Source: Gallionella sp.
GTDB taxonomy: Bacteria; Pseudomonadota; Gammaproteobacteria; Burkholderiales; Gallionellaceae
Reading direction: 5' to 3'
DNA: 64,000 nt
Assembly (NCBI GenBank): GCA_035529795.1
Contig: DATKVZ010000034.1
Location: 92,547 to 156,546 of the forward strand
Every line of letters begins with the position of its first letter. The first letter of the stretch is position 1. The notes beneath the pieces are model-generated. The model saw only the letters and a program-made list of their open reading frames with translations. It did not search any database and was not told where the DNA came from. Shown in pieces: positions 876-49,375 of the stretch. The translations under genes were made by a program, and so were the position numbers.

Positions 876-981
876 CAGAGTGAAATTCGTGAAATTGTCG
901 GTGCTGAAAAAATAATTTGAACCCGACCCCTTTTGCCATTGTGGTTGATAGATGGGATAAACTGCGAGCACGAAACTTTAG

Positions 982-1140
982 ATAGACATTCGCACGCTGG
1001 AAATCATCGAGGGTAGTTTGCCGAAACTCGCACTGGCGATGGTGCTTGAATGGGCAGCACAACATCGGGAAGAGTTAATGGAGGACTGGAACCTATGTCA
1101 ATCGAGACAGCTACCAAAGAACACCCCCCCGCTGGAGTAG
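982..1140 (+). pseudogene. DUF4160-family gene, 5'-truncated
   Basis: Hand translation IDIRTLEIIEGSLPKLALAMVLEWAAQHREELMEDWNLCQSRQLPKNTPPLE*; in-frame TAG at 979-981 and N-terminus absent; overlaps the DUF2442 gene. Confidence 0.7.
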
Positions 1141-1415
1141 TAACGCCAGCACCTTGGCGAGCACGAACCGTCAGCGTGCCCCCGGGGTATCGGCTTTCCG
1201 TCACATGCAACGACGGCACAAATGGCGTTGTCGATATATCCCGCCTGGTTGCAAGCGAGCGGGCTGGCATCTTTGCCGCGCTCAAAGATGAAAAATTATT
1301 CAATCAGGTCAGCATCGAACTCGGTGCGCTTATTTGGCCGAATGGCGCCGACCTTGATCCTGTCTGGCTACATGAAGAAATTGAAGAAAATAAAACGTGG
1401 CTTGCCCCCGGTTAA
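1095..1415 (+). CDS. DUF2442-family protein (partner of DUF4160, putative TA pair)
   Basis: YRLSVTCNDG...F.QVSIELGALIWPNGADLDP motif. Confidence 0.8.
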   Translation: MSIETATKEHPPAGVVTPAPWRARTVSVPPGYRLSVTCNDGTNGVVDISRLVASERAGIFAALKDEKLFNQVSIELGALIWPNGADLDPVWLHEEIEENKTWLAPG

Positions 1416-1419
1416 TGTG

Positions 1420-1761
1420 ATGAATAACTACATTCACATTCTTTTCTTTGGTTTGTTTGCAGTCAATGCTACTTCATACGCGGCTGCACCAGAGATGACC
1501 CCATTTCTTTCAGCTCAAGTGCTCAAGGAGAATCTCAACTCAAAAGACCCCTCGAAATTTGGTTCCGCTATCAGCTACGTTGGCGGCATAGCCGATTACC
1601 TCCTGAGTAAGAAGAAAATCTGCCCTCCTCCTGGGGCTTCGGTAGCATCCGCTGCTATGCTTGCCAAAGCAGATCTAAATAAAGACTCATACGAATACCG
1701 GCATTTATCCGCTGCAACTCCTGTTACGTTCGCACTCCTAATAGGATGGAGTTGTAAATGA
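1420..1761 (+). CDS. Secreted Rap1a/Tai4-like immunity-family protein
   Basis: Signal peptide; YVGGIAD...ICPP...H.SAA..V..AL...WSC pattern resembles the Rap1a family. Confidence 0.55.
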   Translation: MNNYIHILFFGLFAVNATSYAAAPEMTPFLSAQVLKENLNSKDPSKFGSAISYVGGIADYLLSKKKICPPPGASVASAAMLAKADLNKDSYEYRHLSAATPVTFALLIGWSCK

Positions 1762-2033
1762 TGATTGGAGCCGTGACAGTTTGGCTTTCTGAGCGAAGCT
1801 GCTTCTGGTGGATAAATGAAATAGGCATCCTGCTCGAGATTGTTGGAGCACTTACCGTAGTCCTTGCCGCATTCCGCAGCAGAGCGGAGATAAAGGGCAT
1901 CCCAGATTCATGGGATGCGGAGCTCGCCACAAAACTTCGCAACATCATTGCTGCACAGGCATTCACAGAGCTAACGGGCTTCGGTCTACTGACGCTTGGT
2001 CTTTTTGCACAACTGATTGGCGGGTTTGCATAA
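1758..2033 (+). CDS. Hypothetical small membrane protein
   Basis: 91-aa ORF with two hydrophobic segments, coupled to the upstream stop (ATGA overlap). Confidence 0.55.
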   Translation: MMIGAVTVWLSERSCFWWINEIGILLEIVGALTVVLAAFRSRAEIKGIPDSWDAELATKLRNIIAAQAFTELTGFGLLTLGLFAQLIGGFA

Positions 2034-2089
2034 TCTGAGAGTTAATAGGGTCAGGTTGAGGCTTTGACACCCACATATCAATTTAGCCA

Positions 2090-2163
2090 GCGGGCGCAAT
2101 AACCAATGGGCATTGCGCCGCATGAAAACATTCGGCGGAATACGCTGCTCTATTCCACCCTAC
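2090..2163. repeat. Degenerate GTAG-type REP doublet
   Basis: gggcgcaata...attgcgccg and cggcggaata...tattccaccctac: two inverted hairpins, the second ending in CTAC. Confidence 0.5.
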
Positions 2164-2170
2164 AAAAACT

Positions 2171-3088
2171 ATGCCACGCACTCTCCAATCCCTCTTGACA
2201 CAAGACAAAGTCACGCTGGAATCCACGCTATCGCTGGATGCCGGTACGGCGCGCATCGAGGTGCAGATGCTGTTGCAGCATACGCTGGGCGTTTCGCGCG
2301 CGTATCTGTTGGCGCATCCAGAACAGGTATTAGACGGGGCACAGGCTACGGCCTATCGTGCATTATTGCAGCGCCGTCTGGCGGGTGAGCCGCTTGCCTA
2401 TATCCTCGGCGAGCGCGAGTTCTTCGGGTTGAATTTCAAAATCACACCCGCGACGTTGATTCCGCGCCCCGACACCGAGTTGCTGGTAGAGCTGGCGTTG
2501 GCGCGGATTCCTGAACAACACCCCTCACCCGGCCTTACGGCCACCCTCTCCCGCTTGCGGGAGAGGGGCTGGGGGAGAGGAGGTTTATTTCGTGTACTCG
2601 ATCTCGGCACCGGTAGCGGTGCGATCGCGCTTGCCATCGCGCATGCGCGGCCGGATGCAGAAGTGACGGCGGTGGATGCGTCGCCGGAGGCCTTGGAAGT
2701 GGCGCGCGACAATGCGCAGCGGCTGAACATCAGCAACGCGCGACTGCTGCGCAGCGACTGGTTTTCCGCGCTGCCGGGTGAGCGTTTCGATCTGGTCGTT
2801 GCCAATCCGCCCTACATCGCCGATGGTGACGCACATCTCGCGCAGGGCGATCTGCGCTTTGAGCCGCGTACGGCGCTGGCTTCTGGCACGGACGGGCTGG
2901 ACGACATCCGCCGCATCGTCGCGGGTGCGAAAAGGCATCTCAATGCCGGTGGCTGGCTGCTGTTCGAGCATGGCTACGACCAGGCCGGGCAAGCACGGGC
3001 ACTGCTTTATGCGGCGGGGTTTGCCGAGGTGTTTTCGGCGCGCGACCTGGCGGGAATCGAGCGGGTCAGCGGCGCCACGATTCCCTGA
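2171..3088 (+). CDS. prmC: Release factor glutamine methyltransferase PrmC/HemK with ~21-aa palindrome-derived insertion
   Basis: GEPLAYI, LIPRPDTE, VLDLGTGSG and NPPY motifs. Confidence 0.95.
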   Translation: MPRTLQSLLTQDKVTLESTLSLDAGTARIEVQMLLQHTLGVSRAYLLAHPEQVLDGAQATAYRALLQRRLAGEPLAYILGEREFFGLNFKITPATLIPRPDTELLVELALARIPEQHPSPGLTATLSRLRERGWGRGGLFRVLDLGTGSGAIALAIAHARPDAEVTAVDASPEALEVARDNAQRLNISNARLLRSDWFSALPGERFDLVVANPPYIADGDAHLAQGDLRFEPRTALASGTDGLDDIRRIVAGAKRHLNAGGWLLFEHGYDQAGQARALLYAAGFAEVFSARDLAGIERVSGATIP

Positions 3089-3140
3089 CCGGATTATTTG
3101 TCAGCGCATGGCCTTTCCGGCATAATTCACCCGCCGTTCA

Positions 3141-3323
3141 GACCAATGGGAGAGCGTGTCAGCCAGCGTCGTTTCAACGACCCTGACACCGCCGAAGGCG
3201 CAACACCCGCAACCGCTCAGGCTCACGAACTATTGGTACAGGCAAATCTGGAGAGCGTTGGATTACCAACCACCGAAGGGGCACACAACGCGAGTTGTAA
3301 TCTCTCAGGTACCAAAGACAGAT
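3141..3323 (+). ncRNA. Tandem glycine riboswitch (two aptamers)
   Basis: Two GGAGAG...CCGAAGG.GCA...CTCAGG units (about 3141-3237 and 3245-3323) directly upstream of gcvT. Confidence 0.92.
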
Positions 3324-3326
3324 GGG

Positions 3327-3359
3327 GCGCAGCGCAGTTGCGCTGCGTCTTTTTCTTTT
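3327..3359 (+). terminator. Intrinsic terminator-like expression platform of the glycine riboswitch
   Basis: gcgcagcgc-agtt-gcgctgcgt stem followed by a T-rich tract, 13 nt before the gcvT ATG. Confidence 0.65.
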
Positions 3360-3372
3360 CCGGAAAATTGAC

Positions 3373-4461
3373 ATGACACTCAAGCAAACTCCGCTCAATG
3401 CAGCACACCGCACAATGGGCGCGAAGATGGTCGATTTCGGCGGCTGGGACATGCCGGTGAACTACGGTTCGCAAATCGACGAACATCATCAGGTACGCAA
3501 CGACTGCGGCATGTTTGATGTATCACACATGCGCACATTGGACATTAAGGGTAAGGGGGTACGCGACTTTTTGCGTTATTTGCTGGCGAACAACGCCAAC
3601 AAACTCACTACACCCGGCAAGGCACTGTATTCCTGCATGCTGAGCCCGGACGGTGGCGTGATCGACGATCTCATTATTTACTTCATGAGCGAACAGTGGT
3701 TCCGCATCGTGGTCAATGCGGGCACGGCGGACAAGGACATCGCGTGGATGAGGCAGCAGGCGGCACAGCATGCGCCGCAGCTCGCCATCATCTCGCGTGA
3801 CGACTTGGCGATGGTCGCGGTGCAGGGGCCGAATGCGCGCGCCAGGGTATGGCAAGTGCTGCCAGAGACCCGTACGGCTACCGAAGGTTTGCAGAACTTC
3901 CAGGCTACCGATTGCGGCGAATATTTCATTGCGCGCACCGGTTACACCGGTGAAGACGGCTTCGAAATCATGCTACCAAAAGAAAAAGTGGAGGGACTCT
4001 GGCACGCGCTGAACAAGGCGGGTGTAAAACCCATTGGCCTTGGCGCGCGCGATACGCTGCGCCTCGAAGCAGGTATGAATTTGTACGGGCAGGATATGGA
4101 CGAAAGCGTCGGACCGCTTGAATCCGGCCTTGCGTGGACGGTGGACCTGCAGAGTGAGCGCGACTTCATCGGCAAGGCCGCCCTGCTCGCCAACCCGCCA
4201 ACCCGCAAGCTGGTCGGGCTGGTGTTGCTGGATCGCGGGATACTGCGCGGCCACCAGCGTGTGCATACCGCGCACGGCGAAGGCGAGATTACCAGTGGCA
4301 GTTTTTCGCCCACTCTGGAAAAATCCATCGCGCTGGCGCGTGTGCCGAAAGAAGTACAGGTCGGCGACCAGGTACAGGTGGCGATTCGCGATAAAATGCT
4401 GGCGGCAAAAGTGGTGAAGTATCCGTTCGTGCGCAATGGGAAAGCAGTCGTTAGCGGTTAG
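3373..4461 (+). CDS. gcvT: Glycine cleavage aminomethyltransferase T
   Basis: [40 protein letters not shown]. Confidence 0.97.
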
Positions 4462-4484
4462 TTCAAACCGCACAGCGACGAAAC

Positions 4485-4531
4485 CAACTAACAACTAACA
4501 ACTAACAACTAACAACTAACAACTAACAACT
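4485..4531 (+). repeat. Heptamer tandem repeat (CAACTAA) x6.7
   Basis: Six perfect units plus CAACT, abutting the gcvH RBS (GGAGA 4532-4536). Confidence 0.95.
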
Positions 4532-4541
4532 GGAGATTCAA

Positions 4542-4931
4542 ATGAGCAACCCGAGCAATCTGAAATACACCGCCTCCCACGAATGGATCCGAAGCGAAGC
4601 GGACGGCACCATCAGTATCGGTATTACGCAACACGCGCAGGAAGCGCTGGGTGACATGGTGTTTGTCGAAACCCCGGCAGTGGGTCGCAAGCTCAAAACT
4701 GGGGAAGAGTGCGTTGTGGTGGAATCGGTCAAAGCCGCTGCGGACGTATACGCACCGGTGAGCGGCGAGGTGGTGGCGGTAAATAGTGAACTTGATAGCA
4801 CGCCGGAAGCCATTAACGCCGACCCGTATGCTGCGTGGATATTCCGTATGAAGCCGGACAACGCGGCGGATGTCACCGCACTGATGGATGCGGCGGCGTA
4901 TCAGGCCGTCGTGGACAGCGAAGCCCATTAG
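4542..4931 (+). CDS. gcvH: Glycine cleavage H protein
   Basis: HEW...GIT.HAQ..LGD, lipoyl-lysine motif VESVKAA. Confidence 0.97.
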
Positions 4932-4935
4932 GTGA

Positions 4936-5064
4936 AGTAGTTATTAGACGTAAGTTGTTAGTCAAATCCGCGAGCGGACTACACCAACTAACTACTATTA
5001 TGTAACAACTACTTCGCACAACTTTTATTTTTAACTTCCGACTAACGTCTAGCAACTACCAACT
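4936..5064. repeat. Inverted degenerate heptamer-repeat element
   Basis: Left arm gtagtta-ttagacg-taagttg-ttagtc is complementary to right arm gactaa-cgtctag-caactac (one unit fewer). Confidence 0.7.
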
Positions 5065-5069
5065 GCCCC

Positions 5070-6581
5070 ATGCCCTTTATCCCCCACACCGAGCAAGATA
5101 TTACAGCGATGCTCGCCAGCATCGGCGCAAAAGATATCAACACGCTGTTCGATGAAATTCCTGCCGCGCTGAAAAGCGGCAAGCTCACTGCTATTGGTGA
5201 CGGCCTGAACGAGATGCAGGTATCGCGCCTGATGCATGAACGTGCCGCGCAGGATAGCCAACCGCTCAATTTCATTGGCGCGGGTGCCTACGAGCACCAC
5301 ATCCCCGCTGCTGTCTGGGAAATCGTCACGCGCGGTGAGTATTACACCGCCTACACACCGTATCAGGCCGAGGCCAGCCAGGGCACACTGCAAACGCTGT
5401 ACGAGTACCAGACCATGATCGCGTCGTTGACCGGTATGGATGCATCCAATGCCAGCCTTTATGACGGCGCATCCGGCTTGGCAGAAGCGATCCTGATGGC
5501 GGTGCGCGCGCACAAGACTTCGCGCCGTGTGTTGCTGCCCGCCACCGTCAGCCCGCTGTATCGCAGCGTGGTGCGCAGCATCGTCAAATTGCAAAACATC
5601 GAACTGATAGAAATCCCGTTCGATCCCACCACCGGTACTATTGATCTCAAGGCGCTGCAACAATACGCCGGCAGCGACCTTGCCGCACTAGTCATCCCGC
5701 AGCCGAATTTTTTCGGCGCATTGGAAGATGTCGATGCGCTGACCGACTGGGTGCACGCACAAAATGCGCTGGCGGTCGCTTTGGTCAATCCGGTTTCGCT
5801 CGCTCTGCTGAAAGCGCCGGGTAACTGGGGAAGCCCCTCTCCTCAATCCTCTGATAAAACAACTAGCCATTTGACTACGCCTGCAAGCGGGCAAGTCACT
5901 GGTTATCCCGCAGGCGGGAGAGGAGGCGAACGTGAAGTGGGGCAAGCAGGTATTTTGTCGCAAGACAAAAACTCGCAAAATCAATTGTTGATTCCCGGCG
6001 CGGATATCGCGGTCGGCGACGGTCAGCCGCTCGGCGCGCCACTGTCCAGCGGTGGCCCGTATTTCGGCTTCATGTGCTGCAAGCAGGCGCTGGTGCGCCA
6101 GATGCCGGGGCGCATCATCGGTCGCACCGTGGATATGGATGGCAAGCCGGGCTTCACGCTGACGCTACAGGCCCGCGAGCAGCACATCCGCCGCGCCAAG
6201 GCGACTTCCAATATTTGCAGCAACCAGGGATTGATGGTGGCTGCAGCCACCATTCACATGGCATTGCTCGGTGCAGACGGTCTGCGCCGCGTCGCCGCAA
6301 CGTCATATACCAACACACAAACACTGCTGGAAAAATTGTGCGCCATCCCCGGTGTAAAACCGGCGTTTGGCACACCCAGTTTCCACGAGGCGGTAGTGCA
6401 ATTACCCAAACCAGCCGCCGCAGTATTGGCTAGAATGGAAGCGCAGGATGTGCTTGGTGGCTATGATCTTTCCACGCACTATCCGCAATTGGGCAATGCG
6501 ATTCTGGTATGCGCTACCGAAACCAAAACGGTGGCCGACCTGCAACGCTGTGCCGACACACTGCAATCTGTCCTCAACTAA
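5070..6581 (+). CDS. gcvPA: Glycine decarboxylase subunit 1 with ~55-aa insertion
   Basis: [26 protein letters not shown]; 503 aa. Confidence 0.95.
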
Positions 6582-6598
6582 CTCAGGAGAATTTCAAA

Positions 6599-7099
6599 AT
6601 GAGTACCGTCAAATTAAAAGGCAACACCGTCAACCTGCTCGGCGATTTTCCCCAAGTGGGCCAGTCCGCACCGGTGTTTACGCTGGTGGACAAAGATCTC
6701 AAGGATGTCACGCTGGACAATTTTGTCGGCAAACGCAAGGTGCTGAATATCGTGCCGAGCCTCGACACTGCGGTGTGCGCCACGTCTACACGAAAATTCA
6801 ACGAAGCGGCCAGCAAACTCAACAATACCGTGGTGCTGGTAATCTCAGCCGACCTGCCGTTCGCCATGAACCGCTTCTGTGTTGCCGAAGGGCTGAACAA
6901 CGTCGTCACACTGTCGCTAATGCGTGGGCGCGAATTCATGCGCAACTACGGTGTGGAGATTGCCGATTCCGGCCTGCGCGGCGTCGCCGCACGCGCCGTA
7001 GTGGTGCTTGATGAAAATAATAAAGTGACCTACACCGAGCTGGTGCCGGAGATCACGCAGGAGCCAAACTACGATGCGGCGCTGACAGCGTTAAAATAA
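6599..7099 (+). CDS. tpx: Thiol peroxidase (atypical 2-Cys peroxiredoxin)
   Basis: [18 protein letters not shown]; AGGAG upstream of ATG 6599. Confidence 0.93.
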
Positions 7100-7103
7100 A
7101 AAC

Positions 7104-7190
7104 CGTCATTCCCGCGCAGGCGGGAATTCAGCAGTATAAAAATGCTTTTTTGTTTAAACCTATTAGATTCCCGCCTGCGCGGGAATGGCG
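7104..7190. repeat. Inverted pair of ATTCCC-N8-GGGAAT (dRS3-like) palindromes
   Basis: attcccgcgcaggcgggaat (7108-7127) and attcccgcctgcgcgggaat (7167-7186). Confidence 0.85.
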
Positions 7191-7215
7191 AAATCTGGAC
7201 TTGAGGAATAATGCC

Positions 7216-8700
7216 GTGCTGATTTTCGAACGCTCCCGCCCCGGCCGCCGCAATGCGGCGCAAGCTCCGAACCACCTTGTAGCGGCCAGCGGCCCTTCGG
7301 CTGAGCTCAGTGCAGACATTCCCGCCGCGCTGTTGCGTCAGGATCAGCCACTGTTACCGGAAGCCTCGGAGATGGATGTGGTGCGTCATTACACCGGGCT
7401 GTCACAGAAGAATTTTTCCATCGATACGCATTTCTATCCGCTCGGCTCCTGCACCATGAAATACAACCCGCGCGCCTGCAACACGCTGGCGATGCTGCCT
7501 AACTTTCTGGCACGCCATCCGCTCGCACCGGAATCCACCGGCCAGGGCGTACTGGCCTGTCTGCATGATTTGCAGGAAATCCTCAAGGGCGTAACCGGTA
7601 TGGCAGGTATCTCGCTTGCGCCGATGGCGGGCGCGCAAGGCGAATTCGCCGGCATCGCGATGATCCGCGCCTATCATGATGCGCGTGGCGACACCGCGCG
7701 CAATGAAATCATCGTGCCGGATGCGGCACACGGCACCAACCCGGCCACGGCGGTGATGTGCGGCTATACCGTGAAGGAGATTCCGACCAACGCGAACGGC
7801 GACGTGGATCTCGATGCACTGCGCGCCGCCACCGGACCGCAGACTGCCGGGCTAATGCTCACCAATCCTTCCACCCTGGGTGTGTTTGAGAAACGTATTC
7901 AGGACATTCAAAAAATTATCCACGACGCAGGCGGCCTGCTGTATTACGACGGCGCCAATTTGAATGCGATTCTCGGCAAGGTCAAGCCGGGTGACATGGG
8001 GTTCGACGTGATCCACATGAACCTGCACAAGACCTTCTCCACGCCGCACGGCGGCGGTGGGCCGGGCGCAGGTGCGGTGGGGGTGGCACAGCGCCTGCTG
8101 CCGTTTCTGCCGCTACCGGTAGTCGCAAAGCAAGACGAAACTTATCGTTATTTAACCGAAGCCGACCTGCCGCAATCCATCGGCCATCTATCCGCCTTCG
8201 CGGGTAATGTTGGTGTTCTGCTGCGCGCCTATGTGTATGCGCGCATGCTCGGCGCGCAGGGCATGCTGCGTGTCGCCGAATTCGCCACGCTGAATGCCAA
8301 CTATATGATGGCGGAATTGCACAAGGCCGGTTTCACCGTCGCCTTTCCGCAACGCCGCGCCAGCCACGAATTTATCATTTCGATGAAACCGCTCAAGGAT
8401 GCCACCGGCATCTCCGCAATGGACGTGGCGAAACGCCTGCTGGACAAGGGCTTCCACCCGCCCACCACCTACTTCCCGATGCTGGTGCCGGAATGTCTGC
8501 TGATCGAGCCGACCGAAACCGAGTCGAAAGAGACACTGGATGCCTTTATCGCCGCACTGAAGGAAATCCGTGACGAGGCTTATGCCTCGCCGGAACTGGT
8601 AAAGAACGCACCGCACACCATGCCGGTGCGCCGCCTCGATGACGTAAAAGCCGCGCGTGAACTCGACCTGACCTGGAAGCCAGCCGTATACACGGCATGA
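7216..8700 (+). CDS. gcvPB: Glycine decarboxylase subunit 2
   Basis: [30 protein letters not shown] (PLP lysine); GTG 7216 with GAGGA upstream. Confidence 0.95.
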
Positions 8701-8748
8701 TTTTGATATCCCGCCGGTGATTGAAGCAATTCGAATTCGCGGCGATAT

Positions 8749-8776
8749 TTGTCATTTAGCACGTTACCGGTATAAT
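8749..8776 (+). promoter_or_regulatory. Sigma70-like promoter of tRNA-Phe
   Basis: TTGTCA-16nt-TATAAT followed by a GC-rich discriminator. Confidence 0.6.
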
Positions 8777-8835
8777 GCGCCGCTTCCTGAGCCGGCCGAT
8801 TTGTTCGGCAAGGGAGAAAATGCAGCAAAGAAAAT

Positions 8836-8911
8836 GGCCTGGTAGCTCAGTCGGTAGAGCAGAGGATTGAAAATCCTTGTGTCGGTGGTTCGATTCCGCC
8901 CCGGGCCACCA
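8836..8911 (+). tRNA. tRNA-Phe (GAA)
   Basis: 76-nt cloverleaf, anticodon arm GAGGA-TTGAAAA-TCCTT, GTTCGA T-loop, CCA end. Confidence 0.97.
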
Positions 8912-13031: not shown

Positions 13032-13128
13032 CTCCCTCTCCCGCTCGCGGGATAACCAGCGACTTGGTCGCCGTATTGGGGCGGCCTAGTCGAATGGCTA
13101 GTAGTTCTATCAGAGGGTTGGGGAGAGT
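13032..13128 (-). repeat. Composite CCCTCTCCC-family palindrome with nested GATA...TATC core
   Basis: Reverse complement aligns along its length with 5834-5926 inside gcvPA. Confidence 0.85.
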
Positions 13129-36071: not shown

Positions 36072-36110
36072 CCTCCTCTCCCGCATGCGGGAGAGGATTG
36101 AGGTGAGGGA
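36072..36110. repeat. CCCTCTCCC-family palindrome (intergenic)
   Basis: cctctcccgc-at-gcgggagagg + attgaggtgaggg tail. Confidence 0.85.
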
Positions 36111-39179: not shown

Positions 39180-39181
39180 GC

Positions 39182-40881: not shown

Positions 40882-42039
40882 CTACCGTGCCGTGGGTTTG
40901 GGACGCTTGCCGATTTTTACCGATAGTTTTATAGCAGTCCCGTCGCGCAACAACTTGAGCTCGACGACCTTGCCGGGCGGCAGACTGGTCACAGTTTCCA
41001 GCATGGTGTTCCAATCATTAATGGCCTGGCCATCCATTGCAATCAGGATATCACCGGTCTCTACGCCCGCCTTCTCGGCCGGCCCGTTGCGCGTCACTTC
41101 AGTAATCAGCAGACCCTTGGCGCTACCCAGTTTGAACGACTCGGCCAGTTCCGGCGTGAGTTCCTGAACACCCGCGCCGATCCAGCCGCGCGTCACCGAA
41201 CCGGTCAGGATGATTTGTTCCATGGTTTTTTTCGCGGTATCGGCGGAAATGGCGAAGCCGATGCCGAGCGAACCGCCATTTGGCGAATAAATCGCGCTAT
41301 TGACGCCAATCAGATTGCCATTCACATCCACCAGCGCCCCGCCGGAATTACCCGGGTTGATTGCGGCATCGGTCTGAATGAAATTCTCGAAGGTATTCAA
41401 CCCCAGATGATCGCGCTTGAGCGCGCTGATGATGCCCATCGTGACAGTTTGCCCGACGCCGAACGGATTACCGATGGCCAGCACTATATCGCCGACTTGC
41501 GCCCGATCCGGGCGGCCAAAAGTAATGGCGGGAATTTCACCGGGCAGATCAATTTTGATAACGGCAAGGTCGGTTTCCGGATCGGAACCGATAACATGCG
41601 CCTTGGCCTTGCGGCCATCCGCCAGCGCGACTTCGATCTGGTCAGCGGTTTCCACCACATGATGATTGGTAAGAATGTAGCCGTCCGGACTAACGACAAC
41701 GCCGGAGCCCAGGCTGGAACTGCTTTGCGGCTCATTGTCCGACGGATCACCGAAGAAAAAACGGAAGCGCGGATCCTCCATCAACGGATGGGGTGCTGGT
41801 GCCTTGATGACGGTGCTGGTAAAGATATTCACCACGGCAGGCATGGCCTTTTGCGCGGCAACGCTCAATCCGGCCACGGGATTTTGACTGCCTGCTGCCG
41901 GTGGCGCACTTTCATGCAGGGTAACCACCCCGCTGTGCGCCGCATCTGGCAACAGTTCCGGTTTGAGCGTCTGAACGACGAACAGTAGCGCCAGCACAAC
42001 GGTGACTGCCTGAGTAAAAAAAAGCCAGTATTTACGCAT
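40882..42039 (-). CDS. DegQ/DegS-type HtrA protease with one PDZ domain
   Basis: SLGSGV, TN.HV, QTDAAINPGNSGG. Confidence 0.93.
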   Translation of the reverse strand: MRKYWLFFTQAVTVVLALLFVVQTLKPELLPDAAHSGVVTLHESAPPAAGSQNPVAGLSVAAQKAMPAVVNIFTSTVIKAPAPHPLMEDPRFRFFFGDPSDNEPQSSSSLGSGVVVSPDGYILTNHHVVETADQIEVALADGRKAKAHVIGSDPETDLAVIKIDLPGEIPAITFGRPDRAQVGDIVLAIGNPFGVGQTVTMGIISALKRDHLGLNTFENFIQTDAAINPGNSGGALVDVNGNLIGVNSAIYSPNGGSLGIGFAISADTAKKTMEQIILTGSVTRGWIGAGVQELTPELAESFKLGSAKGLLITEVTRNGPAEKAGVETGDILIAMDGQAINDWNTMLETVTSLPPGKVVELKLLRDGTAIKLSVKIGKRPKPTAR

Positions 42040-42079
42040 GGTATGATTGACTCGCCTGTTTCATATCGAAGGAAAACTC

Positions 42080-42826
42080 ATGCTGCTCAATGAATTGCGC
42101 GATTATAACGCATGCCTGCTGCAAACAGACCTGTTCAAGGATTACTGCCCGAACGGCCTGCAGGTGGAAGGACGCGCGGAAGTGCGGCGCATTGCCACCG
42201 GCGTAACCGCCTCACAGTTTGTGCTGGATGCGGCCATCGCATGGGGCGCGGATGCGATTCTGGTACACCACGGCTATTTCTGGCGCAACGAAGACGCCGC
42301 TATAACCGGCATCAAAAAACGGCGTATTGCCAAGTTGCTGCACAACGACGTAAGCCTGCTGGCCTATCACCTGCCGCTCGACGCACATGCCGAACTGGGC
42401 AACAACGCGCAACTCGGTAAATTACTGGAATTGAACACACAAGGCAGATTCGGCGAACAGGACATCGCCTGCATCGGCGAACTGGCGATCCCGCAAACGC
42501 TGGCGCAATTCGCCGCCTGGATCGGGGGCAGGCTGCAACGCGCTCCGCAGGTTGTCGGGGACGGTACCAAACGTATCCAAAAAGTCGCGTGGTGCAGCGG
42601 CGGCGCGCAGGGTTACTTCGAGGCGGCCATCGCGCAAGGTGCGGATGCCTACATTACCGGCGAGATTTCCGAGCAGAGTTTTCATCTTGCGCAGGAAAGC
42701 GGCGTGGCTTTCATCGCCGCCGGGCATCACGCCACCGAACGGCTTGGTATCCGGGCGCTGGGCGAGCATCTGGCGGCGCACTTCGGCCTGGAACATCGCT
42801 TCTTCGATCAGGATAATCCGGTTTAG
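42080..42826 (+). CDS. Nif3/YbgI-like dinuclear metal protein
   Basis: DYCPNGLQVEG, HHG.FW, YHLPLD.H, GHHATE. Confidence 0.93.
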   Translation: MLLNELRDYNACLLQTDLFKDYCPNGLQVEGRAEVRRIATGVTASQFVLDAAIAWGADAILVHHGYFWRNEDAAITGIKKRRIAKLLHNDVSLLAYHLPLDAHAELGNNAQLGKLLELNTQGRFGEQDIACIGELAIPQTLAQFAAWIGGRLQRAPQVVGDGTKRIQKVAWCSGGAQGYFEAAIAQGADAYITGEISEQSFHLAQESGVAFIAAGHHATERLGIRALGEHLAAHFGLEHRFFDQDNPV

Positions 42827-42879
42827 CAGTCCGGCCGCATGGCCGTATGCGCCTTCAAAAAAAGGATACTTACGGTGTT

Positions 42880-43572
42880 TCACTTGCGGCGAAACACCAG
42901 ATCCCACACCCCGTGCCCGAGACGAATGCCACGCTGCTCGAACTTGGTGAGCGGACGGTAATCCGGTCGCGGCGCGTAATCCGCCGCCGTATTTTCCAGC
43001 AACAACTCACCGCTCAATACAGCGAGCATCTGCTCGGCGTAATCCTGCCAGTCGGTGGCGCAGTGCAGGTAGCCGCCGGGTTTGAGTTTCTGCACCAGTT
43101 GTGCAACGAACGGCGCCTGAATCAGACGGCGCTTATTGTGGCGCGCCTTGTGCCACGGATCGGGGAAAAAAATATGCACACCATCCAGCGTGGCATCACC
43201 GAGCATATCGCGCAGCACTTCCACCGCATCGTGCTGGATGATGCGCAGGTTGGAAATTTGCTGCGTATCGATCAGCTTGAGCAGGTTACCCACGCCCGGC
43301 GTGTGCACTTCCAGCGCGAGATAATCGTTTTCAGGATGCGCCTGTGCGATGCTCGCGGTGCTGTCGCCCATGCCGAAACCAATCTCCAGAATCTTCGGCG
43401 CATCGCGACCGAAAGTACCGTTAAGGTCGAGTGGCTGCGCGGAGTAGGGGATGCCGAAGCGCGGCAGCAACGTTTCCACCGCGCGTTGTTGCGCGGGCGA
43501 GACGCGACCCTGGCGCAGCACGTAGCTGCGGATGTGGCGTTTACTGAGGTCTGTTTCTGGGGTATCCGTCAT
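42880..43572 (-). CDS. trmB: tRNA (guanine-N7) methyltransferase
   Basis: [30 protein letters not shown]. Confidence 0.96.
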
Positions 43573-43589
43573 GGCGAGTTGCTCAATTA

Positions 43590-43650
43590 CCCTCACCCGC
43601 CCTGTCGGGCACCCTCTCCCGCTTGCGGGAGAGGGGATGGGGAGAGGGGG
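43590..43650. repeat. CCCTCTCCC-family palindrome (intergenic), close relative of the prmC insert
   Basis: ccctcaccc-gccctgtcgggc-accctctcccgcttgcgggagagggg-atggggagaggg. Confidence 0.9.
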
Positions 43651-43653
43651 TTT

Positions 43654-44448
43654 TCAGGAACGTGCCGAAGCAATGATCCCCGCCGTTGGCGAGCTCGGGC
43701 TGGCGCTGTATAGCTTCTTCGGCATGCGCCCGGCGAGGAATGCGCTGCGCCCGGCTTCCACCGCCTGCTTCATCGCGCCGGCCATCAGCACCGGCTGCTG
43801 TGCGGCGGCGATGGCGGTGTTCATCAGCACGCCGTCGCAGCCCAGCTCCATCGCAATGGCCGCATCCGAGGCGGTGCCGACGCCCGCATCGACGATCACC
43901 GGCACCTGCACGCGCTCCATGATGAGTTGCAAATTCCACGGGTTGAGGATGCCCATGCCCGAGCCAATCAGCGAGGCCAGCGGCATGATCGCCACGCAGC
44001 CGAGGTCTTCCAGTTGCTTGGCGATGATCGGATCGTCCGAGGTATAGACCATCACCTGAAAGCCATCCGCAATCAGCGTCTTCGCGGCGGCGAGCGTCTC
44101 TACCACATTGGGATACAGCGATTGCGGGTCGCCCAGCACTTCCAGCTTGACCAGACTGTGCCCGTCCAGCAGCTCACGCGCCAGACGCAGGGTGCGCACC
44201 GCGTCATCGGCGCTGTAGCAGCCGGCAGTGTTGGGCAGCAGCGTGTATTTTGACGGTGGCAGAATTTCCAGTAGGCTCGGCTCGTTCGGGTTCTGCCCGA
44301 TGTTGCTGCGGCGGATCGCGATGGTGATGATCTCCGCGCCGCTGGCCTCGACTGCCGCCTGGGTCTCGTTGAAATCCTTGTACTTGCCCGTGCCGACCAG
44401 CAGCCGTGACGAATAGCTCTTGCCTGCGATGATGAGTTTGTCGTTCAT
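43654..44448 (-). CDS. thiG: Thiazole synthase
   Basis: [27 protein letters not shown]. Confidence 0.96.
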
Positions 44449-44484
44449 TGATGAGTTCCTGTTCAATAGGATTGCAACCTTGCT

Positions 44485-44524
44485 TCCCTCGCCCCTTAGG
44501 GGAGAGGGATTGAGGGAGAGGGGT
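44485..44524. repeat. CCCTCTCCC-family palindrome (intergenic)
   Basis: ccctcgccccttaggggagaggg-attgagggagagggg. Confidence 0.8.
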
Positions 44525-44728
44525 TTAGCCCCCGCCCACCGCCACGACCACTTCCAGCCGGTCGCCCTCCGCCAATTGCTGCGTAGCAAACTGGCTGCGC
44601 GGCACGATCTCGCCGTTGCGCTCCAGCGCGACACGCTTGCCGAATAAGCTCATCTCCTCGATGAGTGCAGCGATGCTGATGGCTTGCGGAAACTGGCGTA
44701 ATGCGCCGTTGATGCTGACTGTGATCAC
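44525..44728 (-). CDS. thiS: Sulfur carrier ThiS
   Basis: NGEIVPRS, C-terminal VGGG. Confidence 0.95.
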
Positions 44729-44790
44729 TTTTTGGAGTCTCTGAAATTGCCGATGGCCGTGTTAGAATGCGCATCGTTATTCTACACCAA

Positions 44791-44864
44791 GCGGGTGTAG
44801 TTCAATGGTAGAACGGCAGCTTCCCAAGCTGCATACGACGGTTCGATCCCGTTCACCCGCTCCA
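44791..44864 (+). tRNA. tRNA-Gly (CCC)
   Basis: 74-nt cloverleaf, anticodon arm GCAGC-TTCCCAA-GCTGC, CCA end. Confidence 0.97.
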
Positions 44865-44926
44865 GTTCGTTGCTCCGGCAGCGTGCTTTTATAGAATCCG
44901 CTTCGATTCGAACAAGGGGGCGCACC

Positions 44927-45136
44927 ATGTTGAGCATAGAAAACCTGACACGTACTGAAAAACTGCGCATGCTGGAGGCAATCTGGGATGACCTAGCACG
45001 CGATCCGGCAGCGCTTATCCCACACGAATGGCATGCACAGGCACTCAAGGATGCCGAACGTGCCCATGCGGAAAACCAGGCCGGTTTTGTGTCCTGGGAT
45101 ATCGCCAAGAAGAAGCTGCGCGACGGCATGTCATGA
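44927..45136 (+). CDS. Putative addiction-module antitoxin component
   Basis: L...EKL...EAIWDDL...W-rich 69-aa ORF overlapping the downstream toxin gene. Confidence 0.75.
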   Translation: MLSIENLTRTEKLRMLEAIWDDLARDPAALIPHEWHAQALKDAERAHAENQAGFVSWDIAKKKLRDGMS

Positions 45137-45426
45137 AGATCGAGATTCTGGATATCGCAATGGGCGATCTCCAGGCCGGTCAGCAGTTTTATGAGCGGCA
45201 GCAGGAAGGGCTGGGTGCTTATTTTCTGGACTCGCTGTTTTCCGACATCGATGCGCTGCTGCTTTACGCTGGAATCCACCAGCAATTTTTCGGCTATTGC
45301 CGTGCGCTCTCGAAGCGGTTTCCTTACGCAATCTACTACCGTGTGTGTGGTGAAACCATCCAGGTTTGGCGTGTGCTGGATTGCCGACAAAAACCTTCGC
45401 GCATAGTCGGTGCGCTACGCGCTTGA
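45133..45426 (+). CDS. ParE/RelE-family toxin
   Basis: A..DL.....FYE.Q..GLG..F...RFPY.IYY...V.RVLD.R. Confidence 0.8.
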   Translation: MKIEILDIAMGDLQAGQQFYERQQEGLGAYFLDSLFSDIDALLLYAGIHQQFFGYCRALSKRFPYAIYYRVCGETIQVWRVLDCRQKPSRIVGALRA

Positions 45427-45491
45427 TCTCGCTCCAGTTCTCGCACCGTTTTTCGGAGAGGGGGTGGCCGCGAGGCTGCCTCCTTACCCTC

Positions 45492-45527
45492 CTGCATACG
45501 ACGGTTCGATCCCGTTCACCCGCTCCA
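45492..45527 (+). repeat. Exact 36-bp copy of the tRNA-Gly 3' end (attR-like)
   Basis: ctgcatacgacggttcgatcccgttcacccgctcca, identical to 44829-44864. Confidence 0.97.
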
Positions 45528-45659
45528 TTCACTGCGCCGTTTTTCACGGCAATCTTCACACGATTCGTTCAGGTCAAAATTGACTCGCTGGTTCGGCATT
45601 CCGGATTGGATGAAAAATTGGGCATTTAATTCGAACCTGGCCCCTTTGATCTACGTTTG

Positions 45660-45698
45660 GTTAGGCGGAGATGTCAACTATTTTGGGGGAAGGTTACA
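45660..45698 (-). mobile_element. Orphan IS3-like terminal inverted-repeat remnant
   Basis: Minus strand TGTAACCTTCCCCCAAAATAGTTGACATCTCCGCCTAAC resembles IS3-group ends (TG...CCC...AATAGT.GACA...CTAA); from memory, not searched. Confidence 0.4.
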
Positions 45699-45723
45699 GT
45701 CCCTCTCGACTGCCGGGTTAGCC
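45699..45723 (-). other. Truncated attC site (R''/L'' half)
   Basis: Minus strand GGCTAAC-CCGGC-AGTCGAGAGGGAC contains the TAA stop of the preceding ORF. Confidence 0.6.
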
Positions 45724-46245
45724 TGATTTGTTTGCAAAGACATCAACTGGCTTTCCGTCCAAGTATGACTGTGCAAGCTCTGCAACAACATCGTATGAAG
45801 CTAGTAGATCCTCGTAGCGCCCAATGAAGGTACCCCATGGGTCTGCTTGTACCTTTTCTTTTACCGCAAGAATAAAAAATTCCTCCATGCTGTCCATCTG
45901 CTCATCCGCTACGCGCACACGCTCGAAAATGATGTGAAGGCAGTTACGCTCAATAGGCTTTAGGTGGGGATACAGTGACTCTTGAACGGAATAATAGCCT
46001 ACGGTAACAGTGTTGACCGATAACATCGGTAGGAAGCGTTGTTGCCTCATGTGGCTAATCGCTTGATTGAGGATGTCGCGCTTCTGCGGTAGTTGAGCTA
46101 AGACAGACTTTAGCTCCGTACGAACGAGGCGCTTGCTTCTCCATATCTCGGCACGGTAGCGAATATATCTGCTACCTTCACCGAGGGAAAAACCGATGGC
46201 GATACCAGCAAAAGCAATCAAAGACGAGGAATCAAATGCGCTCAT
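45718..46245 (-). CDS. Hypothetical cassette protein (N-terminal TM)
   Basis: 175-aa lower-GC ORF whose stop lies in the attC R'' box. Confidence 0.65.
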   Translation of the reverse strand: MSAFDSSSLIAFAGIAIGFSLGEGSRYIRYRAEIWRSKRLVRTELKSVLAQLPQKRDILNQAISHMRQQRFLPMLSVNTVTVGYYSVQESLYPHLKPIERNCLHIIFERVRVADEQMDSMEEFFILAVKEKVQADPWGTFIGRYEDLLASYDVVAELAQSYLDGKPVDVFANKSG

Positions 46246-46254
46246 TTGCGAAGA

Positions 46255-46584
46255 CTATGGGCAATTAATAATAATGCCCTGCTGCGATAATTTGTCACGC
46301 CGCTCGAAACATCTCTGCCGATTGCTAGCATTCATGTCTGCATCGTGAGCATCTCTGCCGGTGAACGGATTGACTGATCCCGGGTTTCGTTGCTCTGCAT
46401 TCGTGCCTCGTTTGTCGTAGTAAAAACCTGGAGGAGCTGGTGGTGTGTCGGATGATCCTTGCGGGTGAGTATCCCACTGAACGATCTGACCTTTGCATTC
46501 GCCCATAATTGTCGGGCCAATACAGCCTGCGTATGTAGTAGTTGAAGCTGTCAGTGCTATGAAAATTAGTGTAGTACGCTTCAT
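46255..46584 (-). CDS. Hypothetical secreted cassette protein
   Basis: Signal peptide; GTTAGCC-AAGGAG-N6-ATG start typical of gene cassettes. Confidence 0.65.
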   Translation of the reverse strand: MKRTTLIFIALTASTTTYAGCIGPTIMGECKGQIVQWDTHPQGSSDTPPAPPGFYYDKRGTNAEQRNPGSVNPFTGRDAHDADMNASNRQRCFERRDKLSQQGIIINCP

Positions 46585-46596
46585 GAGGTTCTCCTT

Positions 46597-46680
46597 GGCT
46601 AACGAATAGCGTTTATCTGCCGCCCTCCCCAGGATTGCTATACCCCCTGCCTTATCGGCGGCGGATAAACCTCGTTGGAC
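46597..46680 (-). other. attC-like recombination site
   Basis: Minus strand GTCCAAC...gtttatccgccgcc / ggcggcagataaac...GTTAGCC, an 84-nt imperfect palindrome. Confidence 0.65.
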
Positions 46681-46932
46681 TGAACCTATCGGAGAGCGGA
46701 ACCTATGGGGATTGTAAGGTTGCGCGATGGCAAGTCAACCGACTTTCATGAGGCAACCCAGACTGGTGACGCTGAAGCTGGTCTTTTCGCGCGATTTCAA
46801 CGTGCCGATCCGTACCAGAATTCCGCCCGGAGCGATACATGGAAGCACCATTCAGACTGCACGGACGAGCGCCACCCCGGCGTGCGCAAAAGCCAAGCCG
46901 CAGGATCAAGCTGACGGGAATACAAGAATGTC

Positions 46933-48084
46933 TCATGGCGGCCCTTGAGGTGGCGGGCGCGGCAAGGGAGAAGGCGGAATTGCTTCTATTACCACGAAGC
47001 GCCCTTCGCCGCAGTGCGGACATTTCAACCACTCGATGCTCGCCACCCGCTTCATAAATTCCGCCACCGACTCGACCACAACCGGGTCGGGAGCCGGTGC
47101 CTCCAGCGCGGCACGGGCTGCGGCAAGGTTGGCCGCCTTGTGCGCCGGGCCAATCAGCCCGTAATGGCGGATGCGCTTGAAGCCGCCGGGCAGCACATGC
47201 TGCATGAAGCGGCCGATGAATTGGGTTGCCTCCAAGCGCACCAGCTTCTTGCGGTTGCCGTTGGCGGAATCGCGCATGCGGAAACGGACCGTGCTTCCCT
47301 CCATGCCGAGGATGCGCTCGTTGGAAATCGCCACCCGGTGCGTGTAACGCCCCAGATACTCCAGCACCTGCGCCGGGCCGCCCAGCGGCTGCTTCGCGTA
47401 GACCACCCAATCGTGGCGGAGCAAAGCCGCGCACAGCTTGCGCCACGCCGCATCGTCCTTTGCCGTATCGTGGCGCAGCCCGCTTCGCGCGCCGTCGAGC
47501 GCATCAAGGAACTTGCCGCGATACACGCCAGAAAGCGCACGCACCGTAAACAGGAAACCACGTTTCGAACTCACCCAGTTGCCGTCTGCCGCCAGCGCCC
47601 CGCCTGCCACCAGCGCATGCACATGGACATGCCGACCGAGATCCTGCTTCCAGGTATGCAGCACCAACGTAAAGCTGGGTCGCCCACCCAGCCAGCGCGG
47701 ATTGGCGGCGAACTCGTTGAGCGTGGCGGAGACGGTATTGAACAGCAACGCATAGAGCGTGCGCGCATCGCATCCGGCCAGCCCGTTAAGCGTGTGCGGC
47801 AAGGTGAACACCAGATGGAAATACGGCACCGGCAACAACTCCCGTCGGCGTGCCGCCAACCAGGCCTCCTTGGCGCGCGTCTGGCACTGCGGGCAATGCC
47901 GGTTACGGCAGGAATGGTACAGGTAGCGCAGTACGCCGCAATGGTCGCAACACTCGACATGCCCGCCCAACACAAAGGTGCGGCACGCGACAATAGCCCG
48001 CCACGCCTTCTCCTGGACGGCGGACAGAGCGCGCGACGCGAGATAGGGCTGGCCGTGCGTGCGTAGAATATCGGCCAGACCCAC
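46933..48084 (-). CDS. IS91-family (Y2/HUH) transposase with Zn-binding N-terminus
   Basis: C..CRT..LGG, HSCRNRHCP.C, HVHVH (HUH), EYLGRYTHR (YxxxY); GTG start uncertain. Confidence 0.92.
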   Translation of the reverse strand: MGLADILRTHGQPYLASRALSAVQEKAWRAIVACRTFVLGGHVECCDHCGVLRYLYHSCRNRHCPQCQTRAKEAWLAARRRELLPVPYFHLVFTLPHTLNGLAGCDARTLYALLFNTVSATLNEFAANPRWLGGRPSFTLVLHTWKQDLGRHVHVHALVAGGALAADGNWVSSKRGFLFTVRALSGVYRGKFLDALDGARSGLRHDTAKDDAAWRKLCAALLRHDWVVYAKQPLGGPAQVLEYLGRYTHRVAISNERILGMEGSTVRFRMRDSANGNRKKLVRLEATQFIGRFMQHVLPGGFKRIRHYGLIGPAHKAANLAAARAALEAPAPDPVVVESVAEFMKRVASIEWLKCPHCGEGRFVVIEAIPPSPLPRPPPQGPP

Positions 48085-48104
48085 ACCGTGGGCCACGACA
48101 ACGG

Positions 48105-48983
48105 CTAGCGAAGGGCGGTGTCGAACAGCTCCAGCGGTGAAGTGGTGCCGGTCAGCTTGTGGTGCGCCAGATGGAAGTAGCGCATGGTGGTTCCCACATG
48201 ACCGTGACCGAGCAGTCGCTGGATAGTGTGGATGTCCACGCCAGACTCCAGCAGGTGGGTGGCGAAACAATGACGCAGCGTGTGGATGCCGCCAACACGT
48301 CCAAGCCCGGCTTTGTCTCGCGCGGCACAATACATGCGTTGCGCCGTCTGGATGGTTATCGGCTCCGTGCCGGTCGGGTTCGGGAACAGCCAGGTACGCG
48401 GACGACAGGCTTGCCAGTAGTCGCGCAGGGTTTGCAGCAAAGCGGGAGAAAGCATCGTGTAGCGATCCTTGCCACCCTTGCCGCCGCGCACCTTGATGCA
48501 CATCCGGTCCGGGGCGCTCTCGATGTCCGCCGCTCGCAGCGCACACACTTCGGATACGCGCAATCCCGCAGCGTAGGCGACCATCAGCAAGGTGCGGGCG
48601 CGCAGGTTCGACGCCGCTGCAAACACCCGCTTCACCTCATCCCGCGACAGTACGCGCGGCAAGGATTTGGGCACCTTCGCCATCGGGATGTCGTATCTGG
48701 ACAGCGGGCGTCGCAGCACCGCATCAAACAAGAACCTGCAAGCGCAGGCCGCCTGATTTACGCTCGAGTAAGCGAGCTTGCGCTCGACAACCAGATGCAG
48801 GAAGTAATCCTGTACTTCTTGTGGCGACAGAGAATCCGGCGTGCGGCGATAGTGCTTTGCCAGCCCTTTCACTGCATCCAGATAAGATTCACGCGTGCGC
48901 AACGCGAACCCGCGCAACACCATGGCATCATCCATCTGTTGGCGTAACGTCTTCCGGGCGCCCGGATAAATGTCTTGAGTCAT
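48105..48983 (-). CDS. Tyrosine recombinase (phage-integrase family, SAM-like N-terminus)
   Basis: YAAGLRVSE, HTLRH, LLGH...TMRY catalytic set; AAGGAG RBS. Confidence 0.93.
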   Translation of the reverse strand: MTQDIYPGARKTLRQQMDDAMVLRGFALRTRESYLDAVKGLAKHYRRTPDSLSPQEVQDYFLHLVVERKLAYSSVNQAACACRFLFDAVLRRPLSRYDIPMAKVPKSLPRVLSRDEVKRVFAAASNLRARTLLMVAYAAGLRVSEVCALRAADIESAPDRMCIKVRGGKGGKDRYTMLSPALLQTLRDYWQACRPRTWLFPNPTGTEPITIQTAQRMYCAARDKAGLGRVGGIHTLRHCFATHLLESGVDIHTIQRLLGHGHVGTTMRYFHLAHHKLTGTTSPLELFDTALR

Positions 48984-49347
48984 CTTCGTCTCCTTGATCG
49001 AATCGGGGACATCCCCCGCGACCAAGGATCGAAGATTTCTACGTGAATTGCAGCAAGGAAAAGCGGAAGTTGAAGAAGGGACGTTCGGGGCAACGCGCCA
49101 CCGCTTTAGCGGTTTAGTTCAACGTAAAGTAGACAGCCTAAAACGCGCCTGCAAAGGCACCTTCAGGGTGTATAAACTGGAAAGTATTTCGCAAGCCATT
49201 GTCTTTAAAGTCCGTGCAAATGTAGCGCACCCTAATTCCTTTGAAAATGGCACCATCCCTCGCCCAAGTAACGGGTTACTCCAAACACTCTGGAACACAC
49301 TAGCAGCAATACCTCTCCTTAACAATATGCCAAAAGGCCTAAGGGTC

Positions 49348-49375
49348 AAAGGGGTTAGCTCAAGCTGACCCCTTT
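49348..49375. repeat. 28-nt palindrome made of two copies of the 17-nt border motif
   Basis: aaaggggttagc-tcaa-gctgaccccttt. Confidence 0.75.

Follow-up and report, generated by a model that had tools for sequence, protein, structure and literature searches.

The stretch of DNA analysed here (the window) comprises 64,000 nucleotides from Gallionella sp. It holds two accessory regions in which a 17-nt motif recurs. A preliminary description had recorded four copies of this motif together with a fifth, inverted arm, and re-reading of the sequence confirms all five, in position as well as in sequence. The copies and the regions that contain them are the following.

1 to 2170, plus strand: accessory region 1, upstream of prmC.
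917 to 933, plus strand: copy c1, TTGAACCCGACCCCTTT.
906 to 935, plus strand: extended form of c1, GAAAAAATAAT-TTGAAC-CCGACCCCTTT, between brnTA and a truncated DUF4160/DUF2442 pair.
2044 to 2060, minus strand: copy c2, CTCAACCTGACCCTATT.
2040 to 2065, minus strand: extended form of c2, a plausible but weak member of the GGGTCAGGT subtype, between the gene of a 91-aa membrane protein and prmC.
44865 to 50238: accessory region 2, between tRNA-Gly(CCC) and the stop codon of a major facilitator superfamily (MFS) transporter gene.
45631 to 45647, plus strand: copy c3, TCGAACCTGGCCCCTTT, with an extended form at 45621 to 45651.
49348 to 49364, minus strand: inverted arm, CTTGAGCTAACCCCTTT.
49359 to 49375, plus strand: copy c4, CTCAAGCTGACCCCTTT.
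49348 to 49375, no strand assigned: inverted doublet of the arm and c4, AAAGGGGTTAG-CTCAAG-CTGACCCCTTT, with an 11-6-11 geometry.

Every copy is non-coding and lies within one of the two accessory regions. None is found in a gene, as had been claimed for the core genes. The pairwise Hamming distances among the four copies are 3-6 of 17, and the arm differs from them at 3-7 positions. No comparable match is found elsewhere in the window, and comparison within the window aligns no similarity past the 17 nt. The motif had been described as marking the borders of both regions. This holds for internal junctions and not for the outer borders. The window copies are internal gene junctions: c1 lies in the middle of region 1, c3 lies 103 nt past the second tRNA-Gly 3′-end repeat, and c4 lies 860 nt from the MFS stop codon.

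Statistics drawn from the window are ambiguous and cannot settle whether the motif is real. The consensus-based figure (0.12 expected versus 3 found) is circular, because the consensus was derived from the copies themselves. Across the 7.5 kb of accessory DNA, families of four sites that match this quality number 10, versus 6.1 ± 4.5 after shuffling. When the count is confined to the non-coding accessory DNA (1.5 kb), a boundary chosen post hoc, 2 such families are observed versus 0.01 expected, and one shuffle in 100 yields such a set. The copies could be chance similarities picked post hoc from low-complexity intergenic DNA, an explanation that we regard as very unlikely. The frequency of same-quality sets in the shuffled 7.5 kb speaks for it, and so do the dissimilar flanks of the window copies; the rarity of such sets in shuffled non-coding accessory DNA speaks against it. 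A stronger argument against it comes from an independent profile, trained on 12 copies from related genomes and on none from the window. Its top three matches in the whole 64 kb are c3 (E 4e-5), c1 (E 7e-4) and c4 (E 0.04). The arm (E 3.4) and c2 (E 4.5) are marginal, and their lack of significance is again a point for chance.

Homologous copies are found at equivalent places in related loci (denoted L and a number). The homologue of c1 is the DUF4160 leader or upstream sequence in L120 and L104, and a counterpart of c3 is present at the equivalent place in the island of Ca. Ferrigenium straubiae (L070, 16242-16269). Copies in the inverse orientation found at c2 lie just upstream of prmC in five loci (L132, L155, L095, L093 and L089). 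These places also argue against chance. Taken together, these comparisons identify c1, c3 and c4 as real family members, for which the chance explanation is already largely refuted, while c2 and the arm are plausible but weak members. The view of the motif as a genuine recurrent element tied to accessory-gene junctions is thus borne out by the independent profile and by the copies in relatives.

The family is seen only with a position weight matrix or profile that tolerates insertions and deletions. A search of the related loci with the narrow consensus at 3-4 mismatches gives no enrichment (4 observed versus 2.8 expected; 6 versus 13.7), since this consensus is too narrow. The family extends over ~28-30 nt and consists of an A-rich arm (GAAAAAYAAT or ATTTAAT), six variable bases and then CTGACCCCTTT. 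This extended similarity is common to the window copies and to L132, L030, L095, L155, L070, L088 and L068. Further non-coding copies are found in L030, L046, L068, L070, L088, L095, L132, L155 and L182. Of the occurrences of the string GACCCCTTT, 5 fall in defined hotspot gaps (90 kb), 5 in putative gaps (171 kb) and 2 in the remaining 1.58 Mb, some of these matches being coding and probably due to chance. CCCCTTT alone is ~4-fold enriched in the AT-richer gap DNA, and therefore the gap enrichment of GACCCCTTT is partly compositional. Five of the eight new profile matches lie in gaps. A full-text literature search with the motif strings returned only unrelated primers. A function as a DNA uptake sequence is rejected, as the motif is far too rare in core DNA.

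Inverted pairs of copies bracket cargo genes, as had been claimed, in the window (917/2060 and 45631/49348) and in four related loci. The pair in L132 (768-784 and 1341-1357) is a perfect 17-nt inverted repeat. The pair in L030 (14952-14982 and 15782-15829) surrounds one 225-aa gene. Further pairs are found around the DUF4160-DUF2442 genes in L095, and in L182 (Sideroxyarcus). Homology between genomes breaks exactly at copies in the comparisons of L030 with L068, of L132 with L155, of L093, L095 and L089 with each other, and of L104 with L120. An association with synteny breakpoints and variable DNA, proposed as a check on the motif, is found in these breaks and in the gap counts, with the reservation on composition given above.

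The bracketing and the exact breaks would be expected if the copies were the ends of cargo modules. Inverted sites of ~28 nt (arm, 6 nt, arm) would then enclose one to several genes, which a recombinase or HUH enzyme acting in trans would exchange between hotspots. The 11-6-11 geometry of 49348-49375 fits such a site, and toxin-antitoxin (TA)-rich modules between inverse 28-bp sites are known as pdif modules (PMC13141974). We nevertheless consider this explanation unlikely. No excised, inverted or relocated form is seen in Logan contigs; those of eight runs over region 2, which drop rare forms, contain no excision or inversion at the motif. Identical cargo with copies attached is not found in two places, and DUF4160-DUF2442 homologues in other hotspots have no copy on their left. 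The arms are unlike Xer sites, for which reason a dif/Xer site is rejected, and within one site the two arms differ from each other. Target duplications are not visible. In addition, the inverted pairs were partly found through directed looking.

A candidate enzyme is suggested by contig L190, which was reached via homologues of the Rap1a-like and membrane-protein pair of the window. It encodes a 290-aa Y1 transposase that passes the NCBIfam RAYT equivalog NF047646 (87.3 bits, cut-off 80). It has a very large family of homologues, many of which JGI records name RayT. The L190 gene is flanked by inverted GGGGTCAGGTCTAGCATC... and ...GATTCTAGACCTGACCC. More generally, inverted GGGGTCAGGTCTAGCA / TGCTAGACCTGACCCC flank the RAYT genes of L190 (24 nt, 2 mismatches), L192 (21 nt, 2 mismatches) and L193 (16 nt, 1 mismatch). 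The same inverted flanks are found in three of four further RAYT contexts, L192 carries several tandem copies downstream, and in L194 and L195 CTAC directly precedes GGGGTCAGG. Such an arrangement, in which inverted copies of a dispersed extragenic repeat flank a RAYT gene, is the hallmark of repetitive extragenic palindromic (REP) and REPIN systems (PMC3116915, PMC5581495). A link to the window is provided by L132. Its RAYT-like gene encodes a protein 34% identical to that of L190 (76 bits, below the cut-off of 80), and a copy of the window type lies 17 nt after its stop codon. REPIN-like doublets are observed in L046 (11205-11331, 127 bp, with arms of the RAYT-flank type, E 1e-5) and in L030 (15782-15884), and the doublet at 49348-49375 of the window is also REPIN-like. 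The 64-kb window itself encodes no RAYT gene, which fits action in trans. The earlier proposal of an HUH or RAYT-like enzyme encoded elsewhere is therefore retained as the best candidate, on the strength of the related RAYT genes flanked by the inverted core.

On balance we favour, as somewhat more probable than not, a low-copy repeat family of the REP/REPIN type, of which the motif would be the core and which a RAYT encoded at another locus would mobilise in trans. Sequence comparison shows that in other genomes the family marks cargo junctions and homology breakpoints, and that its core flanks RAYT genes in inverted orientation. The 17-nt motif would consist of a conserved core of ~11 nt, CTGACCCCTTT, and six variable bases. 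The family would belong to a Y1 (HUH) RAYT system of Gallionellaceae and related Nitrosomonadales. In the window it would be represented by singletons at 917, 2060 and 45631, all three decayed, and by the inverted doublet at 49348-49375. From work on RAYT systems in general it is known that such an enzyme, encoded elsewhere in the genome, binds the single-stranded DNA hairpins of inverted copies, then cuts and rejoins the DNA beside them, seeding non-essential intergenic DNA. The window copies would be acted on in this way in trans and would accumulate in dispensable intergenic DNA, here the hotspot junctions. The hotspots themselves would owe their formation to other processes: insertion of the integrase type at the tRNA-Gly 3′ end, a duplication that copied the prfA 3′ end, and the arrival of the IS91-family unit. 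The copies may be passengers that play a passive part, or hotspots of recombination, and probably did not themselves assemble the cargo. The earlier suggestion that the motif assembles the TA and immunity cargo finds no support in the analysis.

Several observations weigh against the RAYT-type family as an explanation of the window copies. The link between RAYT genes and the window consists of an 11-13-nt core and the single case of L132. A profile built solely from RAYT flanks ranks c2 and c4 first in the window but at E ~3, a weak match because only this core is shared. The 11-mer with one mismatch is not over-represented in the 1.84 Mb of related loci (26 observed versus 30 expected). Around cargo the copies stand in the reverse of the order seen at RAYT genes, and homology breaks exactly at copies; a passive-repeat model predicts neither. 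Single copies are not palindromic, with no convincing hairpin of their own for c1, c2 or c3. By inspection, the window copies carry no GTAG or CGTC tag, one of which is present at one end in most REP families (PMC3733652). As set out below, the doublet also has a form that needs no RAYT.

The opposite bracketing order and the exact breaks would find an explanation if RAYT-type repeat pairs were themselves the working ends of cargo-carrying REPIN-like units. That such an HUH-driven cassette system exists here and shuttles TA, immunity and small secreted-protein genes into the prfA/prmC and tRNA-Gly hotspots seems to us improbable.

The doublet at 49348-49375 folds into a 12-pair hairpin with a 4-nt loop, after which comes AGTTTTT, a T tract (tail AGTTTTTCCT). 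It lies 48 nt past the stop codon of the minus-strand gene 49423-50065. The palindrome had been described as a doublet of the motif. The inverted arm is indeed present, but the structure also reads as an ordinary intrinsic terminator, a form that would need no RAYT. All copies could be transcription punctuation, that is, whole or half intrinsic terminators and leaders inherited with the adjoining genes and with no role in mobility. The palindrome AAAGGGGTYAG...CTRACCCCTTT is found as a terminator in 13 unrelated phage contigs in a scan of IMG/VR that found only generic phage terminators. The enrichment of CCCCTTT in gap DNA and the position of c1 and c3 within 5′ leaders conserved in L120, L104 and L070 point the same way. 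Terminator features are found for 49348-49375 only, and not for c1, c2 or c3. Moreover, singletons that have no pairing partner keep 11 nt across genera and contexts, the extended A-rich arm is conserved too, copies flank RAYT genes as inverted repeats, and a 17/17 inverted repeat that spans a gene, as in L132, is no terminator. We thus hold punctuation to be an improbable explanation of the family as a whole.

The outer borders of the two regions and the other elements within them are listed here.

214 to 290, plus strand: prfA 3′-end remnant (214-241) and promoter-like P element (TTGACC-N17-TAGTGT), which mark the prfA-prmC hotspot.
Region 1 genes: ParE (partial), BrnT/BrnA, truncated DUF4160 and DUF2442, a Rap1a-like protein and the 91-aa membrane protein.
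44791 to 44864, plus strand: tRNA-Gly(CCC), the true left border of region 2 and an insertion hotspot.
45494 to 45527, plus strand: exact 34-nt duplicate, in direct orientation, of the 3′ end of tRNA-Gly (44831-44864), GCATACGACGGTTCGATCCCGTTCACCCGCTCCA.
45718 to 46584, minus strand: two cargo genes of unknown function, for a 109-aa predicted secreted protein (46255-46584) and a 175-aa protein (45718-46245).
46600 to 49123, minus strand: IS91-family unit, with a tyrosine recombinase (48105-48983) and a Y2 transposase (about 48100-46933).

The remnants, the tRNA repeat and the adjoining core genes indicate that the true borders are 3′-end repeats of target genes together with neighbouring core genes. 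These are the tRNA-Gly 3′-end repeat and the MFS stop codon for region 2, and the prfA 3′ remnant and prmC for region 1. Comparison with relatives shows both regions to be insertion hotspots across Gallionellaceae. The genes prfA and prmC overlap, or are separated by <100 nt, in some forty metagenome loci, and in closer relatives the gap measures 0.5-2.3 kb or more and is filled with small TA-type genes. A previous candidate for the ancestral neighbour of prmC, hemB, is rejected: this arrangement is found in no relative, and relatives have prfA there. The P element recurs in the window at 49340-49290 and 50210-50160, both on the minus strand, and is also found beside tRNA-Gly in three Ferrigenium genomes. 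The prfA 3′ remnant and the P element stand at the starts of accessory operons in the window and in L004, L007, L070, L095, L099, L103, L109 and L120. They are found downstream of both prfA and tRNA-Gly, as if the flank of one hotspot had been copied to the other. In L155 (357-664) the motif copy that precedes the full-length prmC is joined directly to a partial second prmC, a duplicated 5′ piece that covers codons 1-75 and ends in ...RRLAGEPI. Close homologues of the DUF4160-DUF2442 pair are found elsewhere in other genera (L181, L182, L184, L187), directly after an ABC-F ATPase gene or after vsr, and their conservation begins at the start codon. At the stop codon of this pair, CGATTAAT forms tandem repeats in L120, L104 and L181.

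In region 2, the 34-nt repeat closes a 663-bp islet with a TA pair (44927-45136 and 45133-45426) as its sole content. The TA pair within 44791-45527 consists of an antitoxin of the Unstab_antitox family and a small ParE-like toxin, and the same pair adjoins tRNA-Gly in Ca. Ferrigenium straubiae (L070) at ~89% nucleotide identity. The spacing between tRNA-Gly and the MFS gene is 5-40 nt in about twenty related genomes, and others carry inserts of 1-6 kb or more. This gap is a classical tRNA hotspot. The MFS transporter of the window has its best matches in metagenome-assembled genomes of Gallionella and Ca. Ferrigenium (80-83% identity). Two relations of the motif to the tRNA gene were considered and rejected. 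The duplicated tRNA 3′ end, GCATACGACGGTTCGATCCCGTTCACCCGCTCCA, is unrelated to the motif, so that the motif is no tRNA-targeting att repeat. As for a remnant of a tRNA 3′ end, c1 and c3 resemble a T-loop with acceptor stem and c1 ends in GCCA, but the sequences AAAAGGG and CAAAGGG would make implausible acceptor stems, and the fit fails for c2 and c4. At the same hotspot, perfect inverted repeats of 169-206 nt are observed in L028 (2158-3673) and L035 (11345-12840), and L049 (11335-14955) has several shorter perfect blocks of 24-39 nt across the same kind of region. These repeats include the 5′ part of tRNA-Gly and the region upstream of it, and they flank segments of 1.1-3.4 kb which may be invertible.

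Pfam identifies a tyrosine recombinase and an IS91-type Y2 transposase in the IS91-family unit. Its termini, defined against L179 and L180, lie at ~49120 (GAACTAAACCGCT...) and at 46603 (...GATAAACGCTATTC, then GTTAGCC). Both are common to the homologous units in an E. coli IncC plasmid and in a Skermanella plasmid (L179, 2506-5094; L180). The inverted copies at 45631 and 49348 do bracket this unit, as had been noted, but its own conserved ends lie 70-230 nt inside them and differ from the motif. The motif as an end of the IS91/integrase unit is consequently rejected, and identity with the end of an insertion sequence (IS), named beforehand as a refutation of the motif as a distinct signal, does not apply to this unit. 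The label of an integron cassette finds no support. No canonical attC site (RYYYAAC...GTTRRRY, 40-150 nt apart) is found on either strand of 1-2200 and 44865-50260. The absence of core/inverse-core pairs also excludes an attC reading of the motif. There is no intI, the only integrase being part of the IS91-type unit. In the E. coli IncC plasmid the homologous unit is inserted within a class 1 integron, at the GTT of one of its attC sites, and this setting may be the source of the label.

A Logan contig of run X5 joins 45719 to 49120 and omits the IS91 unit together with the two adjacent genes. The joint is weak: one contig contains it, with a short side of 23 nt, and it is absent from X22 and from runs X1-X3, in which the organism is present at 45-440x. 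Since it would remove the unit with these genes, the two cargo genes are possibly passengers of the IS91-type unit, and the X5 joint is possibly an empty site. In runs X2 and X3 the assemblies break at the hairpin-bearing IS91 end (46653-46721) and word depth rises there, probably reflecting more copies of this end in those samples.

Other repeats are observed in the core intergenic DNA of the window. One palindromic REP-like family, CCCTCTCCCGC-NNN-GCGGGAGAGGG, has at least six copies.

2544 to 2568, 5906 to 5932, 13035 to 13071, 36075 to 36108, 43612 to 43637 and 57483 to 57507: copies of CCCTCTCCCGC-NNN-GCGGGAGAGGG.

A second palindromic REP-like family is represented by an inverted pair of CATTCCCGCGCAGGCGGGAAT at 7107-7187 and is also present in several related loci. 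A tandem heptamer, CAACTAA, is found at 4485-4533 in the gcvT-gcvH region, with a related 66-nt repeat 500 nt downstream.

If the motif does belong to a RAYT system, uncultured iron-oxidising Gallionellaceae would be seen to harbour a REP/REPIN family, with RAYT partners, that has not been characterised before. REP-like repeats would pile up at, and possibly shape, gene junctions in two conserved insertion hotspots, one at the tRNA-Gly 3′ end and one in the prfA-prmC gap. For annotation, three boundary signals that are easily confused can be told apart here, namely duplications of target-gene 3′ ends, IS91-type ends and REP-like repeats. If repeat pairs were to mobilise cargo, an HUH-driven cassette system would bear on how TA and immunity genes are gathered into arrays.

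A comparison with known systems shows partial likeness to several of them. With integron cassettes the regions share arrays of small, often TA-type genes in one orientation and palindromic junctions; they differ in having neither attC nor intI, and the junction palindrome is only 28 nt long. The doublet at 49348-49375 shares with intrinsic terminators a GC-rich stem between A and T tracts, 48 nt past a stop codon, and this leaves the singletons and the RAYT-flanking copies unexplained. Mobile insertion cassettes and Tn3-derived inverted-repeat miniature elements (TIMEs) likewise carry passenger genes, with no transposase, between inverted repeats of ~17-30 nt (PMC4337579, PMC4133298). Here, the ends could be assigned to no parent IS, and target duplications were not seen. 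The G-run lies inside the cargo pairs, whereas GGGG forms the outer ends in Tn3-type elements, and only GGGGTC is common to the two, so a Tn3-family inverted repeat is rejected. In the pdif modules of Acinetobacter, which are moved by XerC/XerD (PMC13141974, PMC6449649), small and often TA modules also lie between inverse short sites. The 28-bp window doublet resembles such sites in its 11-6-11 geometry, with one well conserved arm and a variable 6-nt centre. Its arms, AAAGGGGTTAG / CTGACCCCTTT, are unrelated to the XerC/XerD arms ATTTCGTATAA / TTATGTTAAAT (Table 1, PMC13141974). The setting is also different, chromosomal hotspots and not plasmids, and no recombination products are observed in Logan contigs.

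The closest known system is that of REP/REPIN and RAYT (Bertels & Rainey 2011, PMC3116915; Bertels et al. 2017, PMC5581495; Messing et al. 2012, PMC3479197; also Nunvar 2010). The motif had been put forward as a possibly undescribed mobility signal; its kind is already described, and such systems are well known. The window family differs from them in that its units are not palindromic, in the missing GTAG/CGTC tag, and in the concentration of copies at the cargo junctions of two hotspots, where they bracket genes in the reverse of the order seen around RAYT genes. Its copy number also appears low, judged over the 64 kb of the source genome that are covered. REP/REPIN families are typically over-represented genome-wide, with tens to hundreds of copies. 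Groups of RAYTs in which the flanking repeat reaches only modest numbers have been described (Bertels et al. 2017, PMC5581495). The likeness lies in a short extragenic repeat that occurs both as singletons and as inverted doublets, in inverted copies that flank RAYT genes in related contigs, in an enzyme that is encoded elsewhere and would act in trans, and in doublets that may form hairpins and resemble terminators.

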